Positions 1,196 through 35,936 of a stretch of DNA of 64,000 nucleotides are shown here, in pieces. Numbering within the stretch: position 1 is the stretch's first letter; every line of letters starts with the position of its first letter. Made by a program: the position numbers and the translations under genes. The notes under the pieces are model-generated. The model saw nothing but the letters and a program-made list of their open reading frames with translations, was not told the DNA's origin and searched no databases. The DNA is from an uncultured Clostridia bacterium (GTDB lineage: Bacteria > Bacillota > Clostridia > TANB77 > CAG-508). The stretch covers positions 68,029 to 132,028 of the forward strand of contig CAUWFE010000001.1 in NCBI GenBank assembly GCA_963558185.1, read 5' to 3'.

Positions 1196-2263
1196 ATGAA
1201 TGCAAATATAAGATGGTTAAGAGAAAAAATGAAAATGTTAGATTTAGAAGGAATGATTATATCAAATCAGAACAATATAAGATATCTAACAGGAATAATA
1301 GCAGAAGGTACTTTATTAATTACTAGAAAAGAAAATATATATTTAACAGATGCAAGATATGTAGAAGAAGTAAATAGTATTTTGACCATTGATGACGAAA
1401 TAATTGTACATGAATACAAAGACTTTACAACAGATGAATATGAAAATTTCTTTTTATTTTGTGAAAATGTAGGATTTGAAGAAAATGACATGACATATGC
1501 ACAATATAAAGAATGTATGCATAGATACAAAATAAATAATATGCAAGAAACAGAAGGTATAATAGAAAAACAAAGAATGATAAAAGATGATGAAGAAATT
1601 TCTAAAATAACAAAAGCTTGTGAAATTACAGATAAATGTTTTGAACATTTAAAAAAATTTATAAAGATAGGTCAAACTGAAAAAGAAATAGCATTAGAAA
1701 TAGAAAGATTTTTCAAATTAAATGGAGCAGAAGATGTATCATTTCCACCAATAGTTGCATCTGGTAAAAATTCTTCTAAACCGCATGCAATTCCAACAGA
1801 CAAAAAAATAGAATTAGGAGACGTTATTACAATAGATTTTGGCTGTAAATATGAAGGATATTGCTCAGACATGACAAGAACAGTATTTGCAGGATATATT
1901 CCAGAACAAATAAAAGAAATATATGATTTAGTTTTAAATAATCAACTTCAAACAGAAAAAGAAATGAAAGAAGGAGCAAATGCTAAAATATTAACAAGAT
2001 TAGTAAAAAATGACTTTGAACTAAATGGTTATGATTTAGTGCATGCATTAGGACATGGAGTAGGATTAGATATACATGAATATCCATTTATATCTAATCA
2101 AGATATAAATTTAAAAGAAAAAATGGTCATAACAAATGAACCAGGAATATACATTCCAGAAAAATTTGGAGTAAGAATAGAAGATACAGTATTAATTTTA
2201 AAAAATGGATGTATAAATTTAACAAAATCTGATAAAAATTATACTATAGTAGATAAAGTGTAA
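1196..2263 (+). CDS. M24 family Xaa-Pro aminopeptidase/dipeptidase
   Basis: Pita-bread fold motifs DFGCKYEGYCSDMTRT, HGVGLDIHE and NEPGIY..GVRIED. Sits in the usual position upstream of efp. Confidence 0.85.
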   Translation: MNANIRWLREKMKMLDLEGMIISNQNNIRYLTGIIAEGTLLITRKENIYLTDARYVEEVNSILTIDDEIIVHEYKDFTTDEYENFFLFCENVGFEENDMTYAQYKECMHRYKINNMQETEGIIEKQRMIKDDEEISKITKACEITDKCFEHLKKFIKIGQTEKEIALEIERFFKLNGAEDVSFPPIVASGKNSSKPHAIPTDKKIELGDVITIDFGCKYEGYCSDMTRTVFAGYIPEQIKEIYDLVLNNQLQTEKEMKEGANAKILTRLVKNDFELNGYDLVHALGHGVGLDIHEYPFISNQDINLKEKMVITNEPGIYIPEKFGVRIEDTVLILKNGCINLTKSDKNYTIVDKV

Positions 2264-2363
2264 ACAAAGTATACATAAAAATTTACAAACTATTGATTTT
2301 TATTACTTTTTGTGTTATTATAAAAAATGATTTTAAACAAGAAGTTAGAAAGGGGTAAATAAT

Positions 2364-2930
2364 ATGGCAGAAGTATATATGGCAGGAGATTTTAGAAATG
2401 GAACAACATTTGAAATGGAAGGAAACGTATATAAAGTAGTAGAATTTCAACATGTAAAACCAGGAAAGGGTTCAGCTTTTGTAAGAACAAAATTAAAAAA
2501 TGTAATAACAGGAGCAGTATTAGAAAAAACATTTAACCCAACAGAAAAATATCCAGGAGCAGAAATTGAAAAAAGAGAAATGCAATATTTATATGCTGAT
2601 GGAGATTTATATTATTTTATGGATAATGAATCTTACGAACAAATGCCTTTAAACAAGGAACAAATTGGAGATGCTTTAAAATATATTAAGGAAAATATGA
2701 ATGTAAAAATTCTTTCATATAAAGGAAATGTATTTTCAGTAGAACCACCAATGTTCGTAGAATTAGAAGTTACATATACAGAACCAGGATTTAGTGGAAA
2801 TACAACTACAACATCTGGAAAACCAGCAAAATTAGAAAATGGATATGAAGTATCAGTTCCTTTATTTGTTAATATAGGTGATATTATTAGAATTGACACA
2901 AGAACTGGCGAATATATGGAAAGAGTTTAA
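2364..2930 (+). CDS. efp: Elongation factor P
   Basis: 188 aa with [21 protein letters not shown], the canonical EF-P loop. GGGG RBS upstream. Confidence 0.95.
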
Positions 2931-26761: not shown

Positions 26762-29497
26762 ATGGAAGAAAAATGGTATTCTAAAAGTGTAGAAGAAATA
26801 CAAAATAAGTTAAATACTGATAAAGACAAAGGTTTAACAGAAAAGCAAGTAGCAGAAAGTAGAAAAAAATACGGTAGTAACGAGTTAAAAGAAAAAAAGA
26901 AAAAAAGCTTATTAGTTAAGTTTTTAGAACAATTCAAGGACTTTATGATAATAATATTAATTATAGCAGCTGTAGTATCAGGAATTGTAGGAGTAATGGA
27001 AGGCGAAGGAATTACAGATACGATAATAATTTTAGTAGTAGTAATAGTTAATGCAATAATTGGAGTAATGCAAGAAAATAAGGCAGAAAAATCTTTAGAA
27101 GCATTACAAAAATTAAGCAGCCATGCAGCAAAAGTTGTTAGAAATGGAAATATGCAAGTATTACCTTCAAAAGAATTAGTGCCAGGTGACTTAGTTATTT
27201 TAGAAACAGGAGATTATGTACCTGCAGATTTAAGAATAATAGAATCGGCTAATTTAAAATCACAAGAATCATCACTAACAGGAGAATCAGTTCCAGTAGA
27301 AAAAACAGAAGAAATTATGCCAGATGAAGAAATTGGAGTAGGAGATAGAAAAAATATTTTATTTTCTTCAAGTTTAATTACATATGGTAGAGGTAAAGGA
27401 ATAGTAGTTTCAACAGGAATGAATACAGAAGTTGGAAAAATTGCTGAAATAATAAATGAAACAGAAGAAACAGTAACACCTTTACAAATAAAATTAAATA
27501 AATTAGGAAAAACACTAGGAATTGTTGCTATTATTATATGTATAGTCATATTTATATTAGGTTTAAGTTATGGAAAAAATCCTATAGATATGTTTATGAC
27601 AGCTGTAAGTTTAGCAGTTGCTGCAATTCCAGAAGGCTTAGCAGCTGTATCTACTATTGTACTAGCAATAGGTGTGCAAAGAATGGTAAAGAAAAATGCA
27701 ATTATAAAAAAATTACCAGCAGTAGAAACTTTAGGAAGCAGTACAGTAATATGCTCTGATAAAACAGGAACATTAACACAAAATAGAATGACAGTACAAA
27801 AAATATTTGTAAATAATTCTATGTATACAATGGAAGAAAAATCTAATATAGAAAATGCAGATATGCTAATTAAAATTAATATGTTATGTAATGATACAAA
27901 AATAGCAGAGGATGGAACATTAGCAGGAGACCCTACAGAAACAGCATTAGTAGACATGGGACTAAAATTAGACTATGGAAAAGAAATATATGAACAATAT
28001 CCTCGTATGCAAGAATTACCTTTTGATTCTACAAGAAAGTTAATGACAACAGTAAATAAAATTGGAGATAAATATGTAGTATGCACAAAAGGTGGAGTAG
28101 ATGAACTTTTAAAATGCTGCAATAGCTATTTAGAAAATGGAAGTGTAAAAAATAATTTACAAGAATATATTTCTTCAATACAAAAAAACAACGAAGATAT
28201 GGCAAAAGAAGCACTTAGAGTGTTAGCATGTGCATATAAAGAAATAGATAATATACCAACACAAGAAGAAATGAAAAATATTGAAAAAGATTTATGTTTT
28301 GTAGGTCTTGTTGGAATGATAGACCCACCAAGAGAAGAAGCAAAATTAGCAGTACAAAAATGTAAAGACGCAGGAATAAAAACTGTAATGATTACAGGTG
28401 ACCATAAAATTACAGCTACTGCAATAGCAAAAAAATTAGGAATATTAGAAAATGAATCAGAAGCAATTACAGGTATAGAACTAGAAAATATGTCACAAGA
28501 AGAACTTGAAAAAAATATTAGAAATTATAGTGTATATGCAAGGGTAAGCCCAGAACATAAAGTAAGAATTGTAAAAGCATGGCAAAAAAATGGAGAAATA
28601 GTTGCCATGACTGGAGATGGAGTAAATGATGCACCAGCACTAAAAACAGCAGATATTGGATGTGCAATGGGTATTGTAGGAACTGACGTTGCAAAAGAAG
28701 CAGCAGATGTTATTTTAACAGATGATAATTTTGCAACAGTTGTATCAGCAGTTGAAGAAGGAAGAAGAATTTATGATAATATTTTAAAAGCAATTCAATT
28801 CTTAATTTCTAGCAATGTAGGTGAAATTGTTATAATTTTCGTAGCAATGCTACTAACACCTTGGCTTGGTAGTCTATTTGGAATAGATGTAAATTTAATA
28901 GAACCATTATTACCAATTCATATTTTATGGATAAATTTAGTAACAGATTCACTTCCAGCATTAGCATTAGCAGTAGATCCAGCAGAAAAAGATGTTATGA
29001 AAAGAAAACCTAAAAAGCATAAAGGAATATTTACAAAAGGAATGACTTGGAGAATAATATACCAAGGTATTATGATAGGTGGAATTACATTAGTAGCATT
29101 TATATTAGGCTTAGCAACTCCAGATGCAGTAATAGAAGAAATAAGACTGGCAAATGCAGACTTAGCAAATTTATCTACAGAAGTATTAAAGGTAGAAGTT
29201 GCACAAACAATGGCATTTACTGTATTAGCATTATCTGAATTAGTACATGTATTTAATATACGAAATAATACAAAATCAATATTTAAAACAGGTATAGCTA
29301 GCAACAAAAAACTATTATTGGCAATTGGTGTGTCAGCATTACTTATGATTACTATATTAGTAGTTCCAGCATTACGCCATATATTTAGCGTTCCAGTTCT
29401 TCCAGTAGGAAATATTATTGAAATAGCATTACTTATACTTTCACCAATAGTAATAGTAGAAATAATGAAATTATTCCATATAAATGGAAAAGACTAA
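26762..29497 (+). CDS. P-type Ca2+-transporting ATPase (P2A, SERCA/PMCA-like)
   Basis: CSDKTGTLTQN phosphorylation site, TGES, MITGDH and MTGDGVNDAPALK motifs, with 10 predicted TM segments. Confidence 0.9.
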   Translation: MEEKWYSKSVEEIQNKLNTDKDKGLTEKQVAESRKKYGSNELKEKKKKSLLVKFLEQFKDFMIIILIIAAVVSGIVGVMEGEGITDTIIILVVVIVNAIIGVMQENKAEKSLEALQKLSSHAAKVVRNGNMQVLPSKELVPGDLVILETGDYVPADLRIIESANLKSQESSLTGESVPVEKTEEIMPDEEIGVGDRKNILFSSSLITYGRGKGIVVSTGMNTEVGKIAEIINETEETVTPLQIKLNKLGKTLGIVAIIICIVIFILGLSYGKNPIDMFMTAVSLAVAAIPEGLAAVSTIVLAIGVQRMVKKNAIIKKLPAVETLGSSTVICSDKTGTLTQNRMTVQKIFVNNSMYTMEEKSNIENADMLIKINMLCNDTKIAEDGTLAGDPTETALVDMGLKLDYGKEIYEQYPRMQELPFDSTRKLMTTVNKIGDKYVVCTKGGVDELLKCCNSYLENGSVKNNLQEYISSIQKNNEDMAKEALRVLACAYKEIDNIPTQEEMKNIEKDLCFVGLVGMIDPPREEAKLAVQKCKDAGIKTVMITGDHKITATAIAKKLGILENESEAITGIELENMSQEELEKNIRNYSVYARVSPEHKVRIVKAWQKNGEIVAMTGDGVNDAPALKTADIGCAMGIVGTDVAKEAADVILTDDNFATVVSAVEEGRRIYDNILKAIQFLISSNVGEIVIIFVAMLLTPWLGSLFGIDVNLIEPLLPIHILWINLVTDSLPALALAVDPAEKDVMKRKPKKHKGIFTKGMTWRIIYQGIMIGGITLVAFILGLATPDAVIEEIRLANADLANLSTEVLKVEVAQTMAFTVLALSELVHVFNIRNNTKSIFKTGIASNKKLLLAIGVSALLMITILVVPALRHIFSVPVLPVGNIIEIALLILSPIVIVEIMKLFHINGKD

Positions 29498-29503
29498 AAA
29501 AAT

Positions 29504-29545
29504 AAGAATATATATAAATTACAATATATATATTCTTTATATTTT
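29504..29545 (+). terminator. AT-rich hairpin terminator
   Basis: AAGAATATATATA-N8-TATATATATTCTT. Confidence 0.4.
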
Positions 29546-29621
29546 TAAATGTAATATGTTGAAATAACTAGAAAAATGAATTATACTATATATAGTAAGA
29601 AAAAATATGAGAGGTAAAAAA

Positions 29622-30611
29622 ATGAAAAGAAAAAATATTTTAGGAATATTATGTTTAATAATAGTTATTATAATGATTTGCATAAATATATCAAATGTAT
29701 ATGCTAATAATGAAGAAGATAACCATATAGATGATGAGGTAAATACATATTTAGGATTAAATGGAAATGCTGATTATGCAGCTGTATTTCAAAACAATAG
29801 TTCTAATGACATATCCCAAGCTTTTTTGAAATATTTTGATGTTCAGAATCTAATAAATACAAAGGCAGAAATAGATTTAGCTATAACATATTTAAAAGAG
29901 ATAGTAAATTACAAATATTGGTCTAAACCGGATCCAAATTACCCACCAAGAGTCGAATATCCTTTAGGAAGTGGAAAATTATATGGAGATATTGACCCAA
30001 TAGCATTTGACGGTAGTGTGTCTGTTGATAAAGAATATTTGAATAATAGGAAAGGCTCTTTTGGAGATTTAACAAAGATATTAATAAATGAAATGCAAGA
30101 GAAATATGAATTGAATAAAGAGCAAGAAAATCAATTAAATGAAATTGAAGCAGAAAATCAGAATGTAATAGAAAGTGATCGAAGAGAGGAAGAAATTGCA
30201 AATGAAATTTATGACAATAATTATCATCCACAAGACGAGGTAGATAAAAATCAAGATAAAGAATACACAATATCAGGTACTGTTATAAGACCAGGAGGAA
30301 GTTCAGTTAATGGTAGTGATATAACAAGCCCGGCAGATAACCCAGAAGATTATAGACCAGGAGAAATGGGAGATAATGTAACTTTAGTAAAACTAGGAGG
30401 AATAATAACAGGAGGGCTTAAAATAGTAGGAATTATTGCATCAGTATTAATATTAGTTATTTTAGGAATAAAATATATGACTGGTACAATACAAGAAAAA
30501 GCAGAATACAAAAAAACAATGATACCATATATAGTAGGAGCAGTATTTTTAGGAGCAGGAGGAGTATTAATAGAACTTATATTTAATCTAGTATCTGGTT
30601 TAACATTTTAG
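29622..30611 (+). CDS. Secreted/membrane-anchored protein with C-terminal two-helix hairpin (VirB2/TrbC-pilin-like topology)
   Basis: Signal peptide ending VYA-NNEE, an acidic coiled middle region, and a C-terminus with two TM helices separated by KYMTGTIQEKAEYKK. Confidence 0.55.
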   Translation: MKRKNILGILCLIIVIIMICINISNVYANNEEDNHIDDEVNTYLGLNGNADYAAVFQNNSSNDISQAFLKYFDVQNLINTKAEIDLAITYLKEIVNYKYWSKPDPNYPPRVEYPLGSGKLYGDIDPIAFDGSVSVDKEYLNNRKGSFGDLTKILINEMQEKYELNKEQENQLNEIEAENQNVIESDRREEEIANEIYDNNYHPQDEVDKNQDKEYTISGTVIRPGGSSVNGSDITSPADNPEDYRPGEMGDNVTLVKLGGIITGGLKIVGIIASVLILVILGIKYMTGTIQEKAEYKKTMIPYIVGAVFLGAGGVLIELIFNLVSGLTF

Positions 30612-30668
30612 AATTATTTAATATCGATAAATTTATAAAAAATAAAACACAAAAAGCATATAAATAAT

Positions 30669-30705
30669 AACCCTAATGTAAAAAACATTAGGGTAAAATT
30701 TTTAG
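30669..30705 (+). terminator. Rho-independent terminator
   Basis: AACCCTAATGT-N5-ACATTAGGGT followed by AAAATTTTT. Confidence 0.6.
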
Positions 30706-30734
30706 TTAAATTTACCTTGCAAACTAATAAATAT

Positions 30735-30875
30735 ATGATATTACAGTCAAAAAACTGTAATAAAAAACAAGATTTTAAAATTTTAACTATAAAAAGGCAT
30801 AATGCCTCTTTCCCCAAAAGTTTCGCTTTGGGGATTTATTAATTTAATAGCTCTTTTCTAGTATAAATAAGTACA
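30735..30875. repeat. 141-bp direct repeat, copy A
   Basis: 134/141 identical to 32337-32477 with no indels. Contains hairpins ATTACAGT..ACTGTAAT, AGGCAT-A-ATGCCT and CCCCAAA..TTTGGGG. Confidence 0.9.
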
Positions 30876-31288
30876 TTCGAAATTAATTTACGTCCTTCAT
30901 TTGTTAAATAATATTTGTTTTTTTCGTGCCACTTTTTTTATAATTCCATCTGCAAGTTGCTGTGTTTCTTTAAAATTTTCTATATATGAAAAAGAGTTAT
31001 TATACATTTCATATTTTATATTGTTCTTATTGAGAATTTTAGAAAGATATTCTCTTCCATATCAAGACAAAGAATATGAAACTTTATTTGATAGCGTGAA
31101 AAACAAATATAAGTTACAAGAAAATTCATCTCTATCATATGAAAAAGGTATTATCAAGCTTACCAACTTTGGATTAAATTTTATTGAAATATGTATTTCT
31201 TAATTTATTTATAAATAAACAAATATATAAATTCAAATAGTGTATAACTTTATTAAGCAATTCATATAATATTAATGTCAAATTTAGT

Positions 31289-31317
31289 TTGACAAGTTAA
31301 ATATTATATGCTAAAAT
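31289..31317 (+). promoter_or_regulatory. Near-consensus promoter with extended -10
   Basis: TTGACA (31289-94), 17 nt spacer, TGc-TAAAAT (31309-17). No protein gene lies downstream on this strand. Confidence 0.65.
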
Positions 31318-31323
31318 ATATTT

Positions 31324-31556
31324 AACTTAACCCTCCACTACTTTCGTAGTGAGACGGGAGCCTAAATGATTTTGGAGAGTTCAAAGCAACTCTCCTTTTA
31401 ATATAATAGGAAAGTTCTCCAAACTTTCCTATTATATTAAAAGCTTCGCTAAACATTTCACACAAATTTTATTTCATAAAATTTGGCGAGCGAACAAAGA
31501 CGAGGCATGAAAAGTCATTAAAAATGTTGAAAATATTAATCATGCCTCTTTTGTTC
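31324..31556 (+). ncRNA. Candidate structured sRNA (about 230 nt), convergent with MazF-like gene
   Basis: Bounded by a promoter and a terminator (GAGGCATGA..TCATGCCTC plus T run, 31502-31555). Hairpins at 31336-51 and 31374-95, plus a 22-bp stem at 31395-31443 with a CUCCA loop. Family unknown. Confidence 0.45.
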
Positions 31557-32252
31557 TTATTTCGTAAAAAATTTTATAATTTGTTTATCAATCAAATCAA
31601 GTGATTCACCAGATATTTTCACATTTCTTCTAACAGTATCTTTAAAAATTCTTTGTTTGCTAATTGTTGTTATTTGATTAATTAAAGCAATGCTATCCTT
31701 CTTCATTTTAGAAATTTCGTTCTCCATTTTTTTTATATATTTTTGTTCTTTTTCTATTATATTTTGAATGTTAATAGGCACATCATCTATTTTTTCTAAT
31801 TCATATAATATTTGCTGTAACTTTTGCTTTTCTTTTTCAATTTTCTCTTTAAAAACATTATAAAGTTCTTTTCCAAGATTTACAGAAGATAAATAATAGT
31901 TTTTACCATCTTTTCTTGATGTTAATGGAATAACATTCAAAGCACCGTTTCTTGTATTATCATATTTATTTAAAACAATACAATAATGCAAGCCACCTAA
32001 TTCATTTCCAATATTAAACCCTAAGTTTACTTTTATAACATCACCACGAGAGTACATACCAGATTTTGAAATATCAAATGTTCCTTCTTCATCATGATAT
32101 TCAGCGAAATCATTTATCCAATAAGCTAATAAATCACTTTTCTTATATTCATTTAATTCTATATGTTTTAAAAAAGATAAATCTAATCTATTCAAAGAAT
32201 TATCCTTATGTATAATTGCATTATTTTTTAGTTCAATTTCATCATTATTCAT
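31557..32252 (-). CDS. Long MazF/PemK-like endoribonuclease toxin homolog with N-terminal extension and coiled-coil insert
   Basis: SRGDVIKVNLGFNIGNELGG, VIPLTSRK and SIALINQITTISKQRI align with the PemK/MazF core. ATG 32252 behind GGAAGGTGA. The track start 32294 lies upstream of the promoter. Confidence 0.68.
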   Translation of the reverse strand: MNNDEIELKNNAIIHKDNSLNRLDLSFLKHIELNEYKKSDLLAYWINDFAEYHDEEGTFDISKSGMYSRGDVIKVNLGFNIGNELGGLHYCIVLNKYDNTRNGALNVIPLTSRKDGKNYYLSSVNLGKELYNVFKEKIEKEKQKLQQILYELEKIDDVPINIQNIIEKEQKYIKKMENEISKMKKDSIALINQITTISKQRIFKDTVRRNVKISGESLDLIDKQIIKFFTK

Positions 32253-32284
32253 AGTATCACCTTCCATAATTTTGGTATGACAAT

Positions 32285-32313
32285 ATTGTATCAAACATTT
32301 GTTTAAAATGCAA
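32285..32313 (-). promoter_or_regulatory. Promoter of MazF-like gene
   Basis: On the minus strand, TTGCAT-17 nt-TACAAT, about 26 nt upstream of the start codon. Confidence 0.55.
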
Positions 32314-32336
32314 CAGCGATTGAAAAATAATTTATT

Positions 32337-32477
32337 ATGTTATTACAGTCAAAAAAATGTAATAAAAAGCAAGATTTTAAAATTTTAACTATAAAAAGGT
32401 ATAATGCCTCTTTCCACAAAAGTTTCGCTTTGAGGATTTATTAATTTAATAGCTCTTTTCTAGTATAAATAAATACA
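32337..32477. repeat. 141-bp direct repeat, copy B
   Basis: See copy A. There are 7 substitutions, several of them in hairpin arms. Confidence 0.9.
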
Positions 32478-32719
32478 AAAGTTTCTAAAATTCCATTGAT
32501 TTTTTCTTAATTCTGTTGTATTATATTCATTGTAAACCTCCTTAATTAGCTATGCTTATTTAAACAGGAACAAAAGCTTAAGCTTGAGGTTCCGATATTA
32601 TTATTGTAGCATAGACTACGTGCACCATAGAGTGCTTTATATTAGTATAATCAACATAAATATTATACTATATTAGCAAGCTAATCTAAAGAGGTTTACT
32701 TTTTTTATACAAATTTAGG

Positions 32720-32749
32720 TTGCGGACTTAGTCTGCCGTATGATATAAT
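32720..32749 (+). promoter_or_regulatory. Promoter of LCP/polysaccharide locus
   Basis: TTGCGG-18 nt-TGa-TATAAT (extended -10), 30 nt upstream of the start. Confidence 0.5.
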
Positions 32750-32779
32750 ACACATAAAAAAGTCGAAATAGGAGAAAAT

Positions 32780-33931
32780 ATGAGCGGTAAACATTCAGAA
32801 GAAGGAAGAAAAAGAATAAAAAACGAACAAAACAATAATAAATATGCAAACTATTCAGAAAATGAACAAAGAATGAAAGAAAGACAAATAAAACAACAAC
32901 CAAAAAAGAAGAAAAAAAATAAAGCGATAAAAATTATAGGAATTATCATTTTAATTTTAGTTCTAATATTAGCAGGAGTTGTAGGTGGAGCATATTGGTA
33001 TGTTCATGATAAATTAGGAAAAATGCAACAAGTTGAAATAGATGAAGATAATTTATCAATAGATAATAAAGTACAGCAAAATTTATCTGGATACAGAAAC
33101 ATTGCACTTTTTGGTGTAGATAGTAGAGATGATGACTTAGGAAAAGGCAACAGAAGTGACTGTATAATTATTGCAAGTATAAATAATAAAACTAAAGAAG
33201 TTAAACTATTATCTGTGTATAGAGATACTTATTTACAAATAGAAGGACATGGACTAGATAAGGTAACTCATGCATATGCATATGGAGGTCCAGAACTTGC
33301 AATACAAACATTAAATACTAATTTAGATTTAAACATAAAAGAATTTGTAACAGTAAACTTTGATTCAGTAGCAGCAATTGTAAATAAATTAGGTGGAGTT
33401 ACAATAAATATAGAACAGTCAGAAATTAAATATATAAATGAATATATAGATGCAACATCTAAAATAACAGGTATTTCTTCAAAGCATGTAACAAAATCAG
33501 GAAAACAAACCTTAGATGGAGTTCAAGCTGTTGCATATTCTCGTATAAGATATACTGCTGGAGGAGACTATAAAAGAACAGAACGTATGAGAAATGTATT
33601 AGAAGCAATGGTCAATAAAGTAAAAACAAAGAGCATTGGAGAAATAAATGAAATATTAGACTATTCATTACCAATGATATATACTAACATAAATGCTAAT
33701 GATATAATTGCATTAATACCAGATGCATTAAATTATAAAATAACAGAAAGCATAGGATGGCCATATGATACAAAAGGAATTACATTAAGTGCATGGTATG
33801 GAGTGCCAGTAACATTAGAATCAAATGTAATAAAATTACATCAAGAATTATTTGCAAAAACAGATTATACACCAACTGAAACAGTGCAAGAAATTAGCAA
33901 TAAAATAATCAAAAAAACAGGATATAAATAA
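32780..33931 (+). CDS. LytR-CpsA-Psr (LCP) family glycopolymer ligase
   Basis: Basic N-terminus, one TM helix, and LCP core NIALFGVDSRDD..RSDCIIIAS..RDTY..HAYAYGG. Confidence 0.88.
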   Translation: MSGKHSEEGRKRIKNEQNNNKYANYSENEQRMKERQIKQQPKKKKKNKAIKIIGIIILILVLILAGVVGGAYWYVHDKLGKMQQVEIDEDNLSIDNKVQQNLSGYRNIALFGVDSRDDDLGKGNRSDCIIIASINNKTKEVKLLSVYRDTYLQIEGHGLDKVTHAYAYGGPELAIQTLNTNLDLNIKEFVTVNFDSVAAIVNKLGGVTINIEQSEIKYINEYIDATSKITGISSKHVTKSGKQTLDGVQAVAYSRIRYTAGGDYKRTERMRNVLEAMVNKVKTKSIGEINEILDYSLPMIYTNINANDIIALIPDALNYKITESIGWPYDTKGITLSAWYGVPVTLESNVIKLHQELFAKTDYTPTETVQEISNKIIKKTGYK

Positions 33932-33938
33932 ATATAGT

Positions 33939-33993
33939 GTGTCTAAGATTTTATAACAAAGTTAAGTTTCAAAAAGTCTTAGACATATTTTTT
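33939..33993 (+). terminator. Hairpin terminator
   Basis: GTGTCTAAGATTTT..AAAAAGTCTTAGACAT followed by a T run. Confidence 0.5.
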
Positions 33994-34102
33994 AAATCAC
34001 TTGTTTATGTAAATTAATAACTAATCATAATAAAAAAGACTAAAAATATTGACATATTAGTTAACAAAATATATTATTCATAATAGAAAAAAATCTAAAT
34101 GA

Positions 34103-34813
34103 ATGGGAGTAGCAAAACAAATGGAAATAAATCAAACAAGATATGATGAAAAATTGCTTATAACCACAGAAATTATAAAGAAAACAGAAGAAATTACTAT
34201 ATATAGATATATAAAAAGAATAATTGATATTGTAATTAGTATTATAGGAATTATACTATTAATTCCTATAATTGCTATCCTATGGATAGCAAATTTCGTA
34301 TCAAAAGATAATGGACCTATTTTTTATACTCAAGATCGCATTGGTAAAAATGGAAAGTACTTTAAATTATACAAATTTCGTTCTATGGTAGTTGGAGCAG
34401 ATGAAAAACTTACAAAATATTTAGCTGAAAATGAAGAAGCAAGAAAAGAATATAGAAAATATAAAAAATTAAAAAATGACCCTAGAATAACACCTATAGG
34501 AAAATTTATTAGAGAAACAAGTATTGACGAATTTCCACAATTTATTAATGTTTTAAAAGGAGATATGAGTTTAATAGGTCCACGTCCATATCTACCAAGA
34601 GAAAAAGAAGACATGAAAGATGCATATTACTACATTATAACATGTAAACCAGGATTAACAGGTTTATGGCAAGTAAGTGGTAGAAGTGATGTAGATTTTG
34701 AAAATAGATTAAAATTAGATTTAGAATATATAGAAAAAGAAAGCTTTACATATGATGTAAAACTATTCTTTAAAACCATAGCTAATATGTTTAAAAGAAG
34801 TGGAGCAATATAA
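34103..34813 (+). CDS. Undecaprenyl-phosphate sugar phosphotransferase (bacterial sugar transferase family, priming enzyme)
   Basis: KFRSM, DEFPQFINVLKGDMSLIGPRP and GLTGLWQVSGRS motifs. The start may instead be ATG 34121. Confidence 0.88.
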   Translation: MGVAKQMEINQTRYDEKLLITTEIIKKTEEITIYRYIKRIIDIVISIIGIILLIPIIAILWIANFVSKDNGPIFYTQDRIGKNGKYFKLYKFRSMVVGADEKLTKYLAENEEARKEYRKYKKLKNDPRITPIGKFIRETSIDEFPQFINVLKGDMSLIGPRPYLPREKEDMKDAYYYIITCKPGLTGLWQVSGRSDVDFENRLKLDLEYIEKESFTYDVKLFFKTIANMFKRSGAI

Positions 34814-34832
34814 AAAGAAAGGAAAATAAATT

Positions 34833-35936
34833 ATGAAAAAGTATGATTATATAATTGTAGGAGCAGGCTTATTCGGAGCAATTTTTGCATATGAAGCAAA
34901 TAAAAAAGGAAAAAAATGCTTAGTAATTGAAAAAAGAAGTCAAATTGCTGGAAATATTTATACAGAAGAAGTAGAAGGAATACAAGTTCACAAATATGGA
35001 GCACATATTTTCCATACAAATAATAAAGAAATATGGAATTATATAAATCAGTTTGCAGAATTTAATAGATACACCAATTCACCAATAGCAAGATATAAAG
35101 ATGAACTATATAATATGCCATTTAATATGAATACTTTTCATGCTTTATGGGGAGTATTCACACCAGAAGAAGCCAAAAACAAAATAGAAGAAGAAAAGAA
35201 AAAATACGGAGTAGAAAATCCAAAAAATTTAGAAGAACAAGCTATAAATTTAGTTGGAAAAACTATATATGAAAAACTAGTAAAAGGATATACAGAAAAA
35301 CAGTGGGGAAAAAGAGCAACAGAATTACCAAGTTTTATAATAAAAAGGTTACCAGTAAGATTTACCTATGACAATAATTACTTCAACGATTTATATCAGG
35401 GAATACCAATAGGTGGATATACTAAAATTATAGAAAAAATGTTATCAAATATAGAAGTAAAATTAAATTGTGACTTTTTTGAAGATGAAGATAATTTTAA
35501 AATGATGGCAGAAAAGATAATATTTACAGGACCAATAGACGCTTACTACCATTTCAAATATGGAGAACTAGAATATAGAAGTTTAAAATTTGAAACAGAA
35601 GTATTAGATATGTCAAATTATCAGGGAAATGCAGTAGTTAATTATACAGAATATGATATTCCATATACAAGAATAATAGAACATAAACATTTTGAATACG
35701 GAACTCAAGAAAAAACAGTAATAACTAGAGAATATCCAGAAAAATGGGAACAAGGAGAAGAACCTTATTATCCAATAAATGATGATAAAAATAATGAACT
35801 TTATGAAAAATATAAAAATCTAGCTAAAGAAGATAATAATGTAATTTTTGGAGGAAGATTAGGACAATATAAATATTACGATATGGATAAAGTTATTGCA
35901 GAAGCATTAAAATTAGTAGAAGAGGAATTAAAGTAG
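34833..35936 (+). CDS. glf: UDP-galactopyranose mutase
   Basis: YDYIIVGAGLFG FAD fold, HKYGAHIFHT and YPINDDKN..FGGRLGQYKYYDMD. Confidence 0.93.
   Translation: MKKYDYIIVGAGLFGAIFAYEANKKGKKCLVIEKRSQIAGNIYTEEVEGIQVHKYGAHIFHTNNKEIWNYINQFAEFNRYTNSPIARYKDELYNMPFNMNTFHALWGVFTPEEAKNKIEEEKKKYGVENPKNLEEQAINLVGKTIYEKLVKGYTEKQWGKRATELPSFIIKRLPVRFTYDNNYFNDLYQGIPIGGYTKIIEKMLSNIEVKLNCDFFEDEDNFKMMAEKIIFTGPIDAYYHFKYGELEYRSLKFETEVLDMSNYQGNAVVNYTEYDIPYTRIIEHKHFEYGTQEKTVITREYPEKWEQGEEPYYPINDDKNNELYEKYKNLAKEDNNVIFGGRLGQYKYYDMDKVIAEALKLVEEELK

Follow-up and report, generated by a model that had tools for sequence, protein, structure and literature searches.

The window analyzed here, a stretch of 64,000 nucleotides (nt) from an uncultured Clostridia bacterium (contig CAUWFE010000001.1, positions 68,029 to 132,028), contains a gene for an enlarged MazF/PemK-family protein (31557..32252, minus strand; positions are those of the window) and, beside it, a gene for a conserved small RNA (sRNA) with two hairpins (31321..31399, plus strand). 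We found that the toxin gene and the sRNA gene are strictly linked across genomes and constitute a phage-derived two-gene module. The sRNA is probably the toxin's antidote. Our preferred reading, which we advance tentatively and hold to be a little short of probable, is that an enlarged MazF-family nuclease would be inhibited by a dedicated protein-binding sRNA, in a type III-like manner. From the sequence comparisons described below, we infer nuclease activity, toxicity, neutralization by RNA, the protein-binding mode of that neutralization, and a role in defense or addiction.

The evidence from linkage and covariation is strong. Two covariance models of the sRNA (R1 and R2), run on both strands of 92 sources (815 kb), returned 85 strong matches, one per locus, each adjoining the toxin gene; the sRNA is thus found beside the toxin gene in 85 of the 85 loci with enough flanking sequence. 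In an nhmmer search, the element directly followed the toxin stop codon in 84 of 101 loci. The loci without a strong match are five in which the contig ends at the gene or within 54 nt of it, and two viral ones, L115 and L116, with weak matches (E 0.005). A single extra match away from a toxin gene was found, in L037, and it is weak as well (E 0.008). In the reverse search, a 27-nt string of the sRNA retrieved 36 metagenome loci, 31 of which carry a MazF-like gene in convergent orientation 22-49 nt beyond the RNA; two others are cut by contig ends, and in the last three, which are truncated, what is left is the RNA with 24-60 nt of the toxin 3′ end and only a portion of the RNA promoter. The toxin gene is degraded or internally deleted, with the sRNA gene kept, in four of the 31, and an intact toxin gene without the sRNA gene was not seen in any of the 92 sources searched with R2. 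This asymmetry, in which the sRNA survives beside a degraded toxin gene and an intact toxin gene is never seen without the sRNA, is as an antitoxin predicts.

These counts bear on the initial annotation of the window, which had described the gene as an orphan toxin, either self-contained or controlled by RNA, and had called for a survey of homologs for a conserved non-coding neighbor. The survey shows such a neighbor, and the RNA-controlled alternative has strong comparative support, from the covarying RNA in every locus with enough flank and from the reverse search. The term "orphan" has to be dropped, given the conserved RNA partner and a large phage family (PHROG 1412; 502 clusters at E ≤ 1e-10). 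Overall, the observation itself is confirmed, and its interpretation is partly supported. As a separate observation, two genomes each carry two diverged toxin-sRNA modules on different contigs (L074 and L080 in CANQJH01; L045 and L093 in CAUWGC01), with differing sRNA sequences; two such modules in one metagenome-assembled genome (MAG) raise the question of partner specificity.

The sRNA, about 79 nt long, consists of the 5′ tail UUUAACUU, hairpin 1 (31331-31358), a conserved linker, and a terminator hairpin (31374-31395) followed by a U-run. The conserved single-stranded bases are the 5′ UUUAACUU and the linker RAAGAYUUU/AAAUGAUUUU. Its promoter, TTGACA-17-TGcTAAAAT (31276..31317, plus strand; -35 at 31289-31294 and -10 at 31312-31317), is near consensus in all clades (TTGACA-17-TGnTAAAAT or TATAAT). 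The folding energy corresponds to a minimum free energy (MFE) z-score of -4.2. In a covariation alignment of 86 rows (69 distinct), 97.7% of the cells are paired, a somewhat inflated figure, and compensatory changes occur in 17 of the 19 pairs; none of 500 shuffles reached this level, and slid controls gave 38-57%. An independent MAFFT/RNAalifold run recovered compensatory changes in 8 of 14 pairs, and such changes are also visible by eye in the raw alignment. The 4227 Rfam models gave no match to the sRNA at E ≤ 1 (29000-35000) or at E ≤ 10 (31230-31420), and the covariance model describes a new RNA family that can be used to annotate gut metagenomes. The initial annotation had postulated a convergent non-coding transcript at 31289-31556. 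A non-coding RNA gene is indeed present there, although the proposed extent was about three times too long, since the conserved RNA covers 31321-31399 and 31409-31553 is a lineage-specific insertion; the convergent arrangement holds for the window's clade and is not essential to the module.

The orientation of the sRNA gene varies by clade: it is convergent to the toxin gene in the clade of the window and co-oriented with it in a sister clade with 46-55% protein identity (loci L094, L096, L098-L101, L104-L113, L115 and L116), which includes both chromosomal and viral contigs. The co-oriented sRNA has its own TTGACA-17-TATAAT promoter (read in L094, L096, L098, L100 and L101) and, therefore, is not antisense there. 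Base pairing in trans of the sRNA with the toxin 5′ untranslated region (UTR) or coding sequence was considered and rejected, being no better than in shuffled controls: the duplex energies of the sRNAs with their own toxin 5′ regions had z-scores of -1.7 to +1.7 against shuffles, and the longest complementarity to the whole toxin mRNA was 6-10 nt, where shuffled sequences average about 8. In the window itself, the two genes are intact although 145 nt with a predicted terminator-like hairpin are inserted between them. The flips in orientation and the lack of complementarity above chance favor a protein-binding, type III-like antitoxin over an antisense RNA, and the conserved structure, the conserved single-stranded bases and the very strong promoter fit an abundant protein-binding RNA.

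Several other explanations of the sRNA region were considered and rejected. The 11-amino-acid (aa) open reading frame (ORF) inside the sRNA has a linker AUG that is not conserved; hence, the sRNA does not encode a peptide. A 47-aa ORF on the minus strand downstream of the toxin gene (31322-31465) spans the lineage-specific insertion and is not conserved. A role of the sRNA as a leader of the integrase gene fits the co-oriented clade only and fails in convergent prophage loci and in cassettes without an integrase. An attachment site does not agree with the gene order, from which this is judged: in the viral loci examined, the sRNA sits between the MazF-like and integrase genes. The miRNA-like Rfam matches at 31397-31441 merely reflect a perfect 22-bp inverted repeat. 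A palindrome, TGTCAAA (31276-31282) and TTTGACA (31288-31294) with N5 spacing, overlaps the -35 element of the sRNA promoter; it could be an operator, or the terminator of a long toxin mRNA. It is seemingly missing from the co-oriented loci that were read.

The protein partner has 231 aa, with an ATG at 32252 and the stop codon at 31557-31559. Its MazF core comes in two halves, residues 66-127 and, together with the C-terminal helix, residues 183-231. An N-terminal helical hairpin (1-65) precedes the first half, and another helical hairpin (128-182) is inserted between the two. The Pfam family PemK_toxin (PF02452) matches it in two stretches, one on either side of the insert (E 9.1e-13; 48.8 bits, the curated threshold being 23.1), and a profile search of the Protein Data Bank (PDB) sequences matched MazF/MoxT at E 3e-7. 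NCBIfam contains nothing beyond weak MazF matches, and PADLOC-DB 2.0, which covers known and candidate defense proteins, gave no match (best E 0.36). All the Pfam, NCBIfam and PADLOC matches point to MazF/PemK only, with none to ToxN/AbiQ, CptN or TenpN. An AlphaFold (AF2) model built from a 51-sequence alignment has a mean predicted local distance difference test score (pLDDT) of 94.9 and a predicted template modeling score (pTM) of 0.87. In this model, helices 2-32 and 36-55 make up the N-terminal extension and helices 129-152 and 160-181 the insert, and the MazF beta core is interrupted by the second helical hairpin and ends in a C-terminal helix. The top 50 Foldseek matches of the model in the PDB are all MazF (B. 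subtilis 4MDX, S. aureus 4MZP, M. tuberculosis, E. coli), with E-values down to 2.4e-7 and target-normalized TM of 0.66-0.83 (about 0.8); no ToxN or AbiQ structure is among these 50. The model thus indicates a genuine SH3-like MazF fold.

The catalytic Arg25 of B. subtilis MazF (GGVRP; R29 in E. coli) aligns with His89 (GGLHY), which is conserved in at least 90% of 51 diverse family members (32-54% identical to the query). Invariant in this set are W45, E56, G70, E84, G86, G87, P109, S112 and K199, and near-invariant are R69, H89, Y90, K114, K137, K184, Q193, T196, S198 and R201. The loop P109-L-T111-S112 aligns with A-I-T48-A of B. subtilis (T52 in E. coli), with a register uncertain by one residue; S112 is invariant, and T111 is common yet variable. 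Because His89 is conserved family-wide, the replacement of Arg by His is an ancestral feature and not decay. The conserved change is compatible with an active site using His, and the conservation pattern shows that the protein evolves under selection like an enzyme. The initial annotation had recognized the order of the MazF/PemK core, the N-terminal extension, the insert, and the loss of the Arg of G-x-RP, and had proposed a structure and profile check for the SH3-like fold; the profile matches, the model and the alignment agree with each of these, at a level well above anything expected by chance.

The enlarged architecture is common to a large family. A word-indexed search yielded 1202 relatives, some of them named [quoted passage not shown], and an exhaustive search of 50%-identity representatives yielded 947 proteins at E ≤ 0.001, 502 of them with E ≤ 1e-10. 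Most members have 225-300 aa and match over query residues ~10-231. Given that the relatives match over the full length, the N-terminal extension and the insert are family features. The PHROG 1412 profile matches residues 18-230 over its positions 10-235 of 237 (E 2.5e-42); it is labeled "antitoxin mazE-like" without a visible basis, the match being to the toxin fold. The labels of the phage relatives, which are uncharacterized, are inconsistent ("antitoxin mazE-like", "PemK/MazF family toxin", "hypothetical").

A tblastn search of phage genomes detected relatives in 110 Staphylococcus and Streptococcus phage records, including QBX23940 of Streptococcus phage Javan166, which is 43% identical to the query over 97% of the query's length. 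In Javan166 and in Staphylococcus phage 77 (ORF017), the MazF-like gene is located between a cI-like repressor and an integrase and is co-oriented with both. IMG/VR added 304 further relatives, many of them 1-3 kb from a contig end, and the viral contigs examined carry a repressor (HTH_3 with Peptidase_S24, or HTH_3 with an ImmA-type Peptidase_M78), the MazF-like gene and Phage_integrase, in that order. The interval between repressor and integrase is a typical place in prophages for lysogen-expressed genes. The gene order shows that the module originated in the lysogeny modules of temperate Firmicutes phages, as repressor, MazF-like gene, sRNA and integrase; this placement is also suggestive of a role in superinfection defense or prophage maintenance. 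A scan of species-representative genomes found 80 loci, all in uncultured gut Clostridia, with 52-94% protein identity. Gut Clostridia of humans and animals, and their poorly studied prophages, very commonly carry the module.

There is no conserved protein partner in the clade of the window. In the window itself, no credible co-oriented neighbor ORF, MazE/PemI-like ORF or remnant is found beside the toxin gene. Across the clade (about 63-94% identity), hardly any two genomes agree in which ORF comes next on either side of the toxin gene, on which strand or how far away; the upstream neighbors are unrelated, lie on either strand, and are typically 130-880 nt away. The cassette occurs in unrelated contexts (the window, L001-L006 and L013-L018), and in the comparison with those loci the homology to the window ends ~80 nt upstream of the ATG (32331) and ~40 nt past the sRNA promoter (~31240). 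A 117-aa ORF upstream of the toxin gene in L001-L006 was rejected as an antitoxin because it corresponds to the C-terminal half of an inosine-uridine nucleoside hydrolase whose gene is broken. The absence of a conserved upstream gene, together with the toxin's own conserved promoter, shows that the organization is not that of type II systems.

That promoter, TTGCAT-17-TACAAT with a TG extension (32285..32313, minus strand; -35 at 32308-32313 and -10 at 32285-32290), was not in the consensus-scan list because its -35 element matches only 3 of 6 consensus positions. Despite the weak -35, it is kept across loci as TTGCAT-17-TGnTATAAT. Its spacer holds a palindrome, AAACA-AA-TGTTT (32291-32307, minus strand), which has the same position in other loci and could be an operator. 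The ribosome-binding site (RBS) GGAAGGTG (32258..32265, minus strand) precedes the ATG by 5 nt, and the homologs have a GGAG-type RBS at the same place. An alternative in-frame TTG start at 32294 would give 245 aa, compared to 231 aa in the homologs. The promoter and RBS, the lack of a MazE/PemI-type ORF, and the departure from canonical MazEF organization were all in the initial annotation and stand; the case that it had set against itself, homologs always paired with a conserved small protein gene, was not seen, given the variable neighbors of the clade.

Under the preferred reading, the nuclease would consist of a MazF core and two helical hairpins, with a His/Ser-Thr active site instead of Arg/Thr. 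The abundant sRNA would bind the nuclease protein and keep it inactive, as type III RNA antitoxins do. If the supply of sRNA failed, through transcription shut-off by an infecting phage or through loss of the element, the more stable nuclease would be freed, and it would then cut RNA, resulting in growth arrest or aborted infection.

A number of points weigh against this reading. In the known type III systems, the antitoxin RNA is an array of tandem repeats that shares an operon with the toxin, lies upstream of it and is processed by it, whereas the RNA of the window is a single two-hairpin unit that lies downstream, has its own promoter and can point either way; the stretch 30600-32800 holds no relevant tandem repeats. 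The predicted activity could be altered or lost with the replacement of the catalytic Arg by His. The protein could be held inactive by its added helical domains, in which case no antitoxin would be needed. The rows of the covariation alignment were placed according to the structure of the model itself, hence the inflation of its pairing. The linkage could partly reflect a compact cassette inherited as a unit. Finally, R1 and R2 gave no match in family members below ~44% protein identity or in Staphylococcus and Streptococcus phages (R2 gave none on Javan166, L007, and phage 77, L008), so that part of the family may lack the RNA partner.

The alternative that survives best, although we consider it somewhat unlikely, is a self-contained effector, in which the helical modules inhibit the nuclease or sense a trigger, and the sRNA is a separate phage element (a terminator, an insulator or another regulator). 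The extra domains may inhibit the nuclease in cis. In favor of a self-contained effector, both helical hairpins are family-wide and confidently modeled, and the gene is placed where prophages carry single-gene exclusion or abortive-infection genes. The distant family members without a match to the RNA model, and the Streptococcus phages with a different sRNA, Rfam RF02589, in the same position by the integrase gene, also agree with an effector that acts by itself. However, in dozens of contexts the repressor and the integrase are gone from the stand-alone cassettes, whereas the sRNA, its promoter and the compensatory changes have always been kept, and an effector independent of the sRNA is hard to square with the one-sided pattern of loss, in which degraded toxin genes with the sRNA are seen and intact ones without it are not.

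We consider unlikely a type I-like control by antisense or convergent transcription, in which the toxin mRNA would read through the shared hairpin, and the 3′ ends would pair and be degraded, or the polymerases would collide. The distance from the sRNA terminator to the toxin stop codon is only 1-20 nt in most loci of this clade of the window, and on the toxin strand the tail after the shared hairpin is rich in A and not in U, which makes read-through plausible; the palindrome over the sRNA -35 element, followed by a U-rich stretch on the toxin strand, could then end a long toxin mRNA. There is a precedent in Bacillus, where the type I RNA antitoxins of txpA/RatA and bsrG/SR4 are convergent and overlap at the 3′ end. 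This geometry is, however, absent from the sister clade, where the sRNA is co-oriented and has its own promoter, and in the window the 145-nt insertion places a long terminator-like hairpin between the genes. Pairing in trans with the 5′ UTR or coding region does not exceed the shuffled controls, and the covariation of hairpin 1 and the conserved single-stranded bases point to a structure-dependent role. An antisense overlap of read-through 3′ ends is possible as an additional layer in the convergent clade.

It is quite improbable, in our view, that the protein is not a toxin at all, and is instead a specific RNA-binding or processing factor with the sRNA as its substrate, cofactor or guide, together forming a lysogeny-regulating ribonucleoprotein. 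The replaced catalytic Arg and the toxin gene's own, apparently constitutive promoter would be in line with such a factor; the near-invariant His89, the invariant Ser112 and the conserved substrate-groove motifs (QITTISKxRI) nevertheless resemble a retained active site. RefSeq phage records that call relatives "antitoxin mazE-like" take up the PHROG 1412 label, which, as noted above, has no visible basis and belongs to a toxin fold. An ordinary type II MazEF system whose protein antitoxin gene has decayed in this genome is extremely improbable: viral contigs often have a co-oriented HTH gene directly upstream, one of which abuts the toxin start, but these genes are phage repressors (HTH_3 with Peptidase_S24) or ImmA-type peptidases of variable type and size, the window's clade has no conserved upstream gene and the toxin has its own conserved promoter, and no MazE/PemI-like ORF or remnant lies beside the gene.

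Around the module, the window shows traces of its local history. The cassette lies between a membrane-protein gene and an LCP gene of a cell-wall polysaccharide locus, and the flanking genes encode a P-type ATPase, a membrane protein, an LCP protein, a sugar transferase and a UDP-galactopyranose mutase; this is not a prophage. A 142-nt direct repeat (left copy 30734..30875, right copy 32336..32477, the right one 95% identical to the left) brackets the segment 30876-32335, and its right copy abuts the end of the cassette homology at ~32331. The repeat has two copies only in the window and contains several hairpins and a terminator-like stem. Within the bracketed segment, a gene remnant (30901..31203, plus strand) preserves the C-terminal end of a gene of which L034 and L036 have full-length copies (162-196 aa) by the cassette; the remnant has a weak phrog_2232 match. 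The repeats and the remnant are consistent with a larger piece inserted by recombination at the repeat and then decayed, and the repeats may be the trace of a Campbell-type insertion. Metagenomes gave no exact match to an empty site, in which one repeat copy would join the left and right flanks, and thus the insertion at this locus is read from the repeats only. All contigs with an identical LCP protein also carry the cassette, and a look-up of the 334-aa membrane protein gave no match.

The lineage-specific insertion of 145 nt (31409..31553), between the sRNA terminator and the toxin stop codon, carries the perfect 22-bp inverted repeat (31395-31416 and 31422-31443) and a long hairpin that could be a bidirectional terminator, as predicted. 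It is missing from the cassettes aligned to the window (L001-L006 and L013-L018), and partial copies of it were found away from the toxin gene in L085 (7661-7737), L069 (994-1093) and L089 (9531-9564). The insertion looks like a small dispersed palindromic element.

Some features of other loci are of interest as well. At L001 5083-6001, and in L002-L006, the toxin gene has lost the promoter, lacks the first ~4 codons, and is joined to the end of the split nucleoside hydrolase gene; the sRNA gene is kept, and its -35 element reads TTAACA. In ~25 loci, the window not among them, a conserved element of ~125 nt lies directly upstream of the toxin promoter and is also found elsewhere in the same contigs (L028 4800-4925, L023 2129-2244, L081 6308-6421, L043 3940-4042, L057 8176-8276). 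Its opposite strand in L028 and L023 has a strong RBS and an ORF of ~9 codons (GGGAGGAACACTATG...), and the element could be a dispersed repeat that helps the cassette to move. In phage 77 (L008 4136-4240, plus strand), a promoter-like site followed by two terminator-like hairpins, with no R1 or R2 match, lies between ORF017 and the integrase gene and may encode a short co-oriented transcript. In L099, from a Clostridia MAG of rabbit gut, a full-length OLE (ornate large extremophilic) RNA (348 bits; 2131-2725, minus strand) is located ~2.3 kb upstream of the MazF-like gene, and the FuFi-1 RNA (Rfam RF02986) lies 2-3 kb upstream of the MazF-like gene at L101 2710-2990 and L126 638-859 (both plus strand).

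The closest relatives of the protein among known systems are the type II MazF/PemK toxins (EndoA/MazF 4MDX, S. aureus 4MZP, B. anthracis MoxT 4HKE), which have the same fold, PF02452, and the motifs RGD-x-V, GsE-GG, P-L-T-S and QI-T-I-K-R-L in the same order. Compared to these, the protein of the window is twice the size, with two added helical hairpins and His for the catalytic Arg, and its gene has an sRNA neighbor instead of a MazE/PemI gene. The phage relatives in PHROG 1412 (phage 77 ORF017, phage P954, Javan166 QBX23940) share the full-length architecture, the difference being that the window copy is a stand-alone chromosomal cassette without repressor or integrase. With the type I systems txpA/RatA and bsrG/SR4, and with SymE/SymR, the module of the window's clade shares a convergent RNA that ends beside the toxin stop codon; it differs from type I in that the toxin is a soluble predicted nuclease of 231 aa, not a small membrane peptide, and the RNA has no complementarity above chance. 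Among known RNAs, RF02589 resembles the sRNA in its position between MazF-like and integrase genes, although its model does not match the sRNA of the window. RF02589 (S. pyogenes small RNA 779816; 76 bits, gathering score 67) was found convergent to the MazF-like gene in Javan166, the closest of the phage relatives (L007 4304-4390, minus strand), and in the related viral contig L119 (4804-4890, minus strand), which hints that the combination of an enlarged MazF and a small RNA may be general. RF02913 (pemK motif; the Rfam accession is what we confirmed) we take to be a precedent, a structured RNA linked to pemK genes in Firmicutes, and presumably it is a 5′ cis-regulatory element, not a separate downstream gene; its model has no match to the sRNA of the window.

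The likeness to the type III systems (ToxIN, AbiQ/antiQ, CptIN, TenpIN) consists in the pairing of an endoribonuclease with a non-coding RNA, in the association with mobile elements and phages, and in the RNA-excess logic that we propose here. The fold of ToxN is related to that of Kid/MazF; the toxin of the window is not of the ToxN/AbiQ, CptN or TenpN families. The module does not fit the organizational definitions of type II, type III and type I. Literature searches returned nothing describing the function of the family or an RNA partner for MazF, and to our knowledge MazF, which ranks among the most thoroughly studied toxins of bacteria, is controlled by a protein antitoxin in every case. 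What we describe is a known toxin fold and a known RNA-antitoxin principle, in a combination and layout that we did not find described. With slightly more reserve than for the reading itself, we suggest that this may be the first MazF-family toxin neutralized by a single-copy structured sRNA, a new type III-like branch in Firmicute prophage lysogeny modules that would have spread as a ~1-kb cassette through gut Clostridia, with the added helical hairpins as an RNA-binding or sensing platform. The system is small, ~1 kb with one protein and one 79-nt RNA. If the reading is true, a MazF lineage that has an sRNA in place of a protein antitoxin would link the type II and type III classes and would show the type of antitoxin changing while the toxin fold stays.

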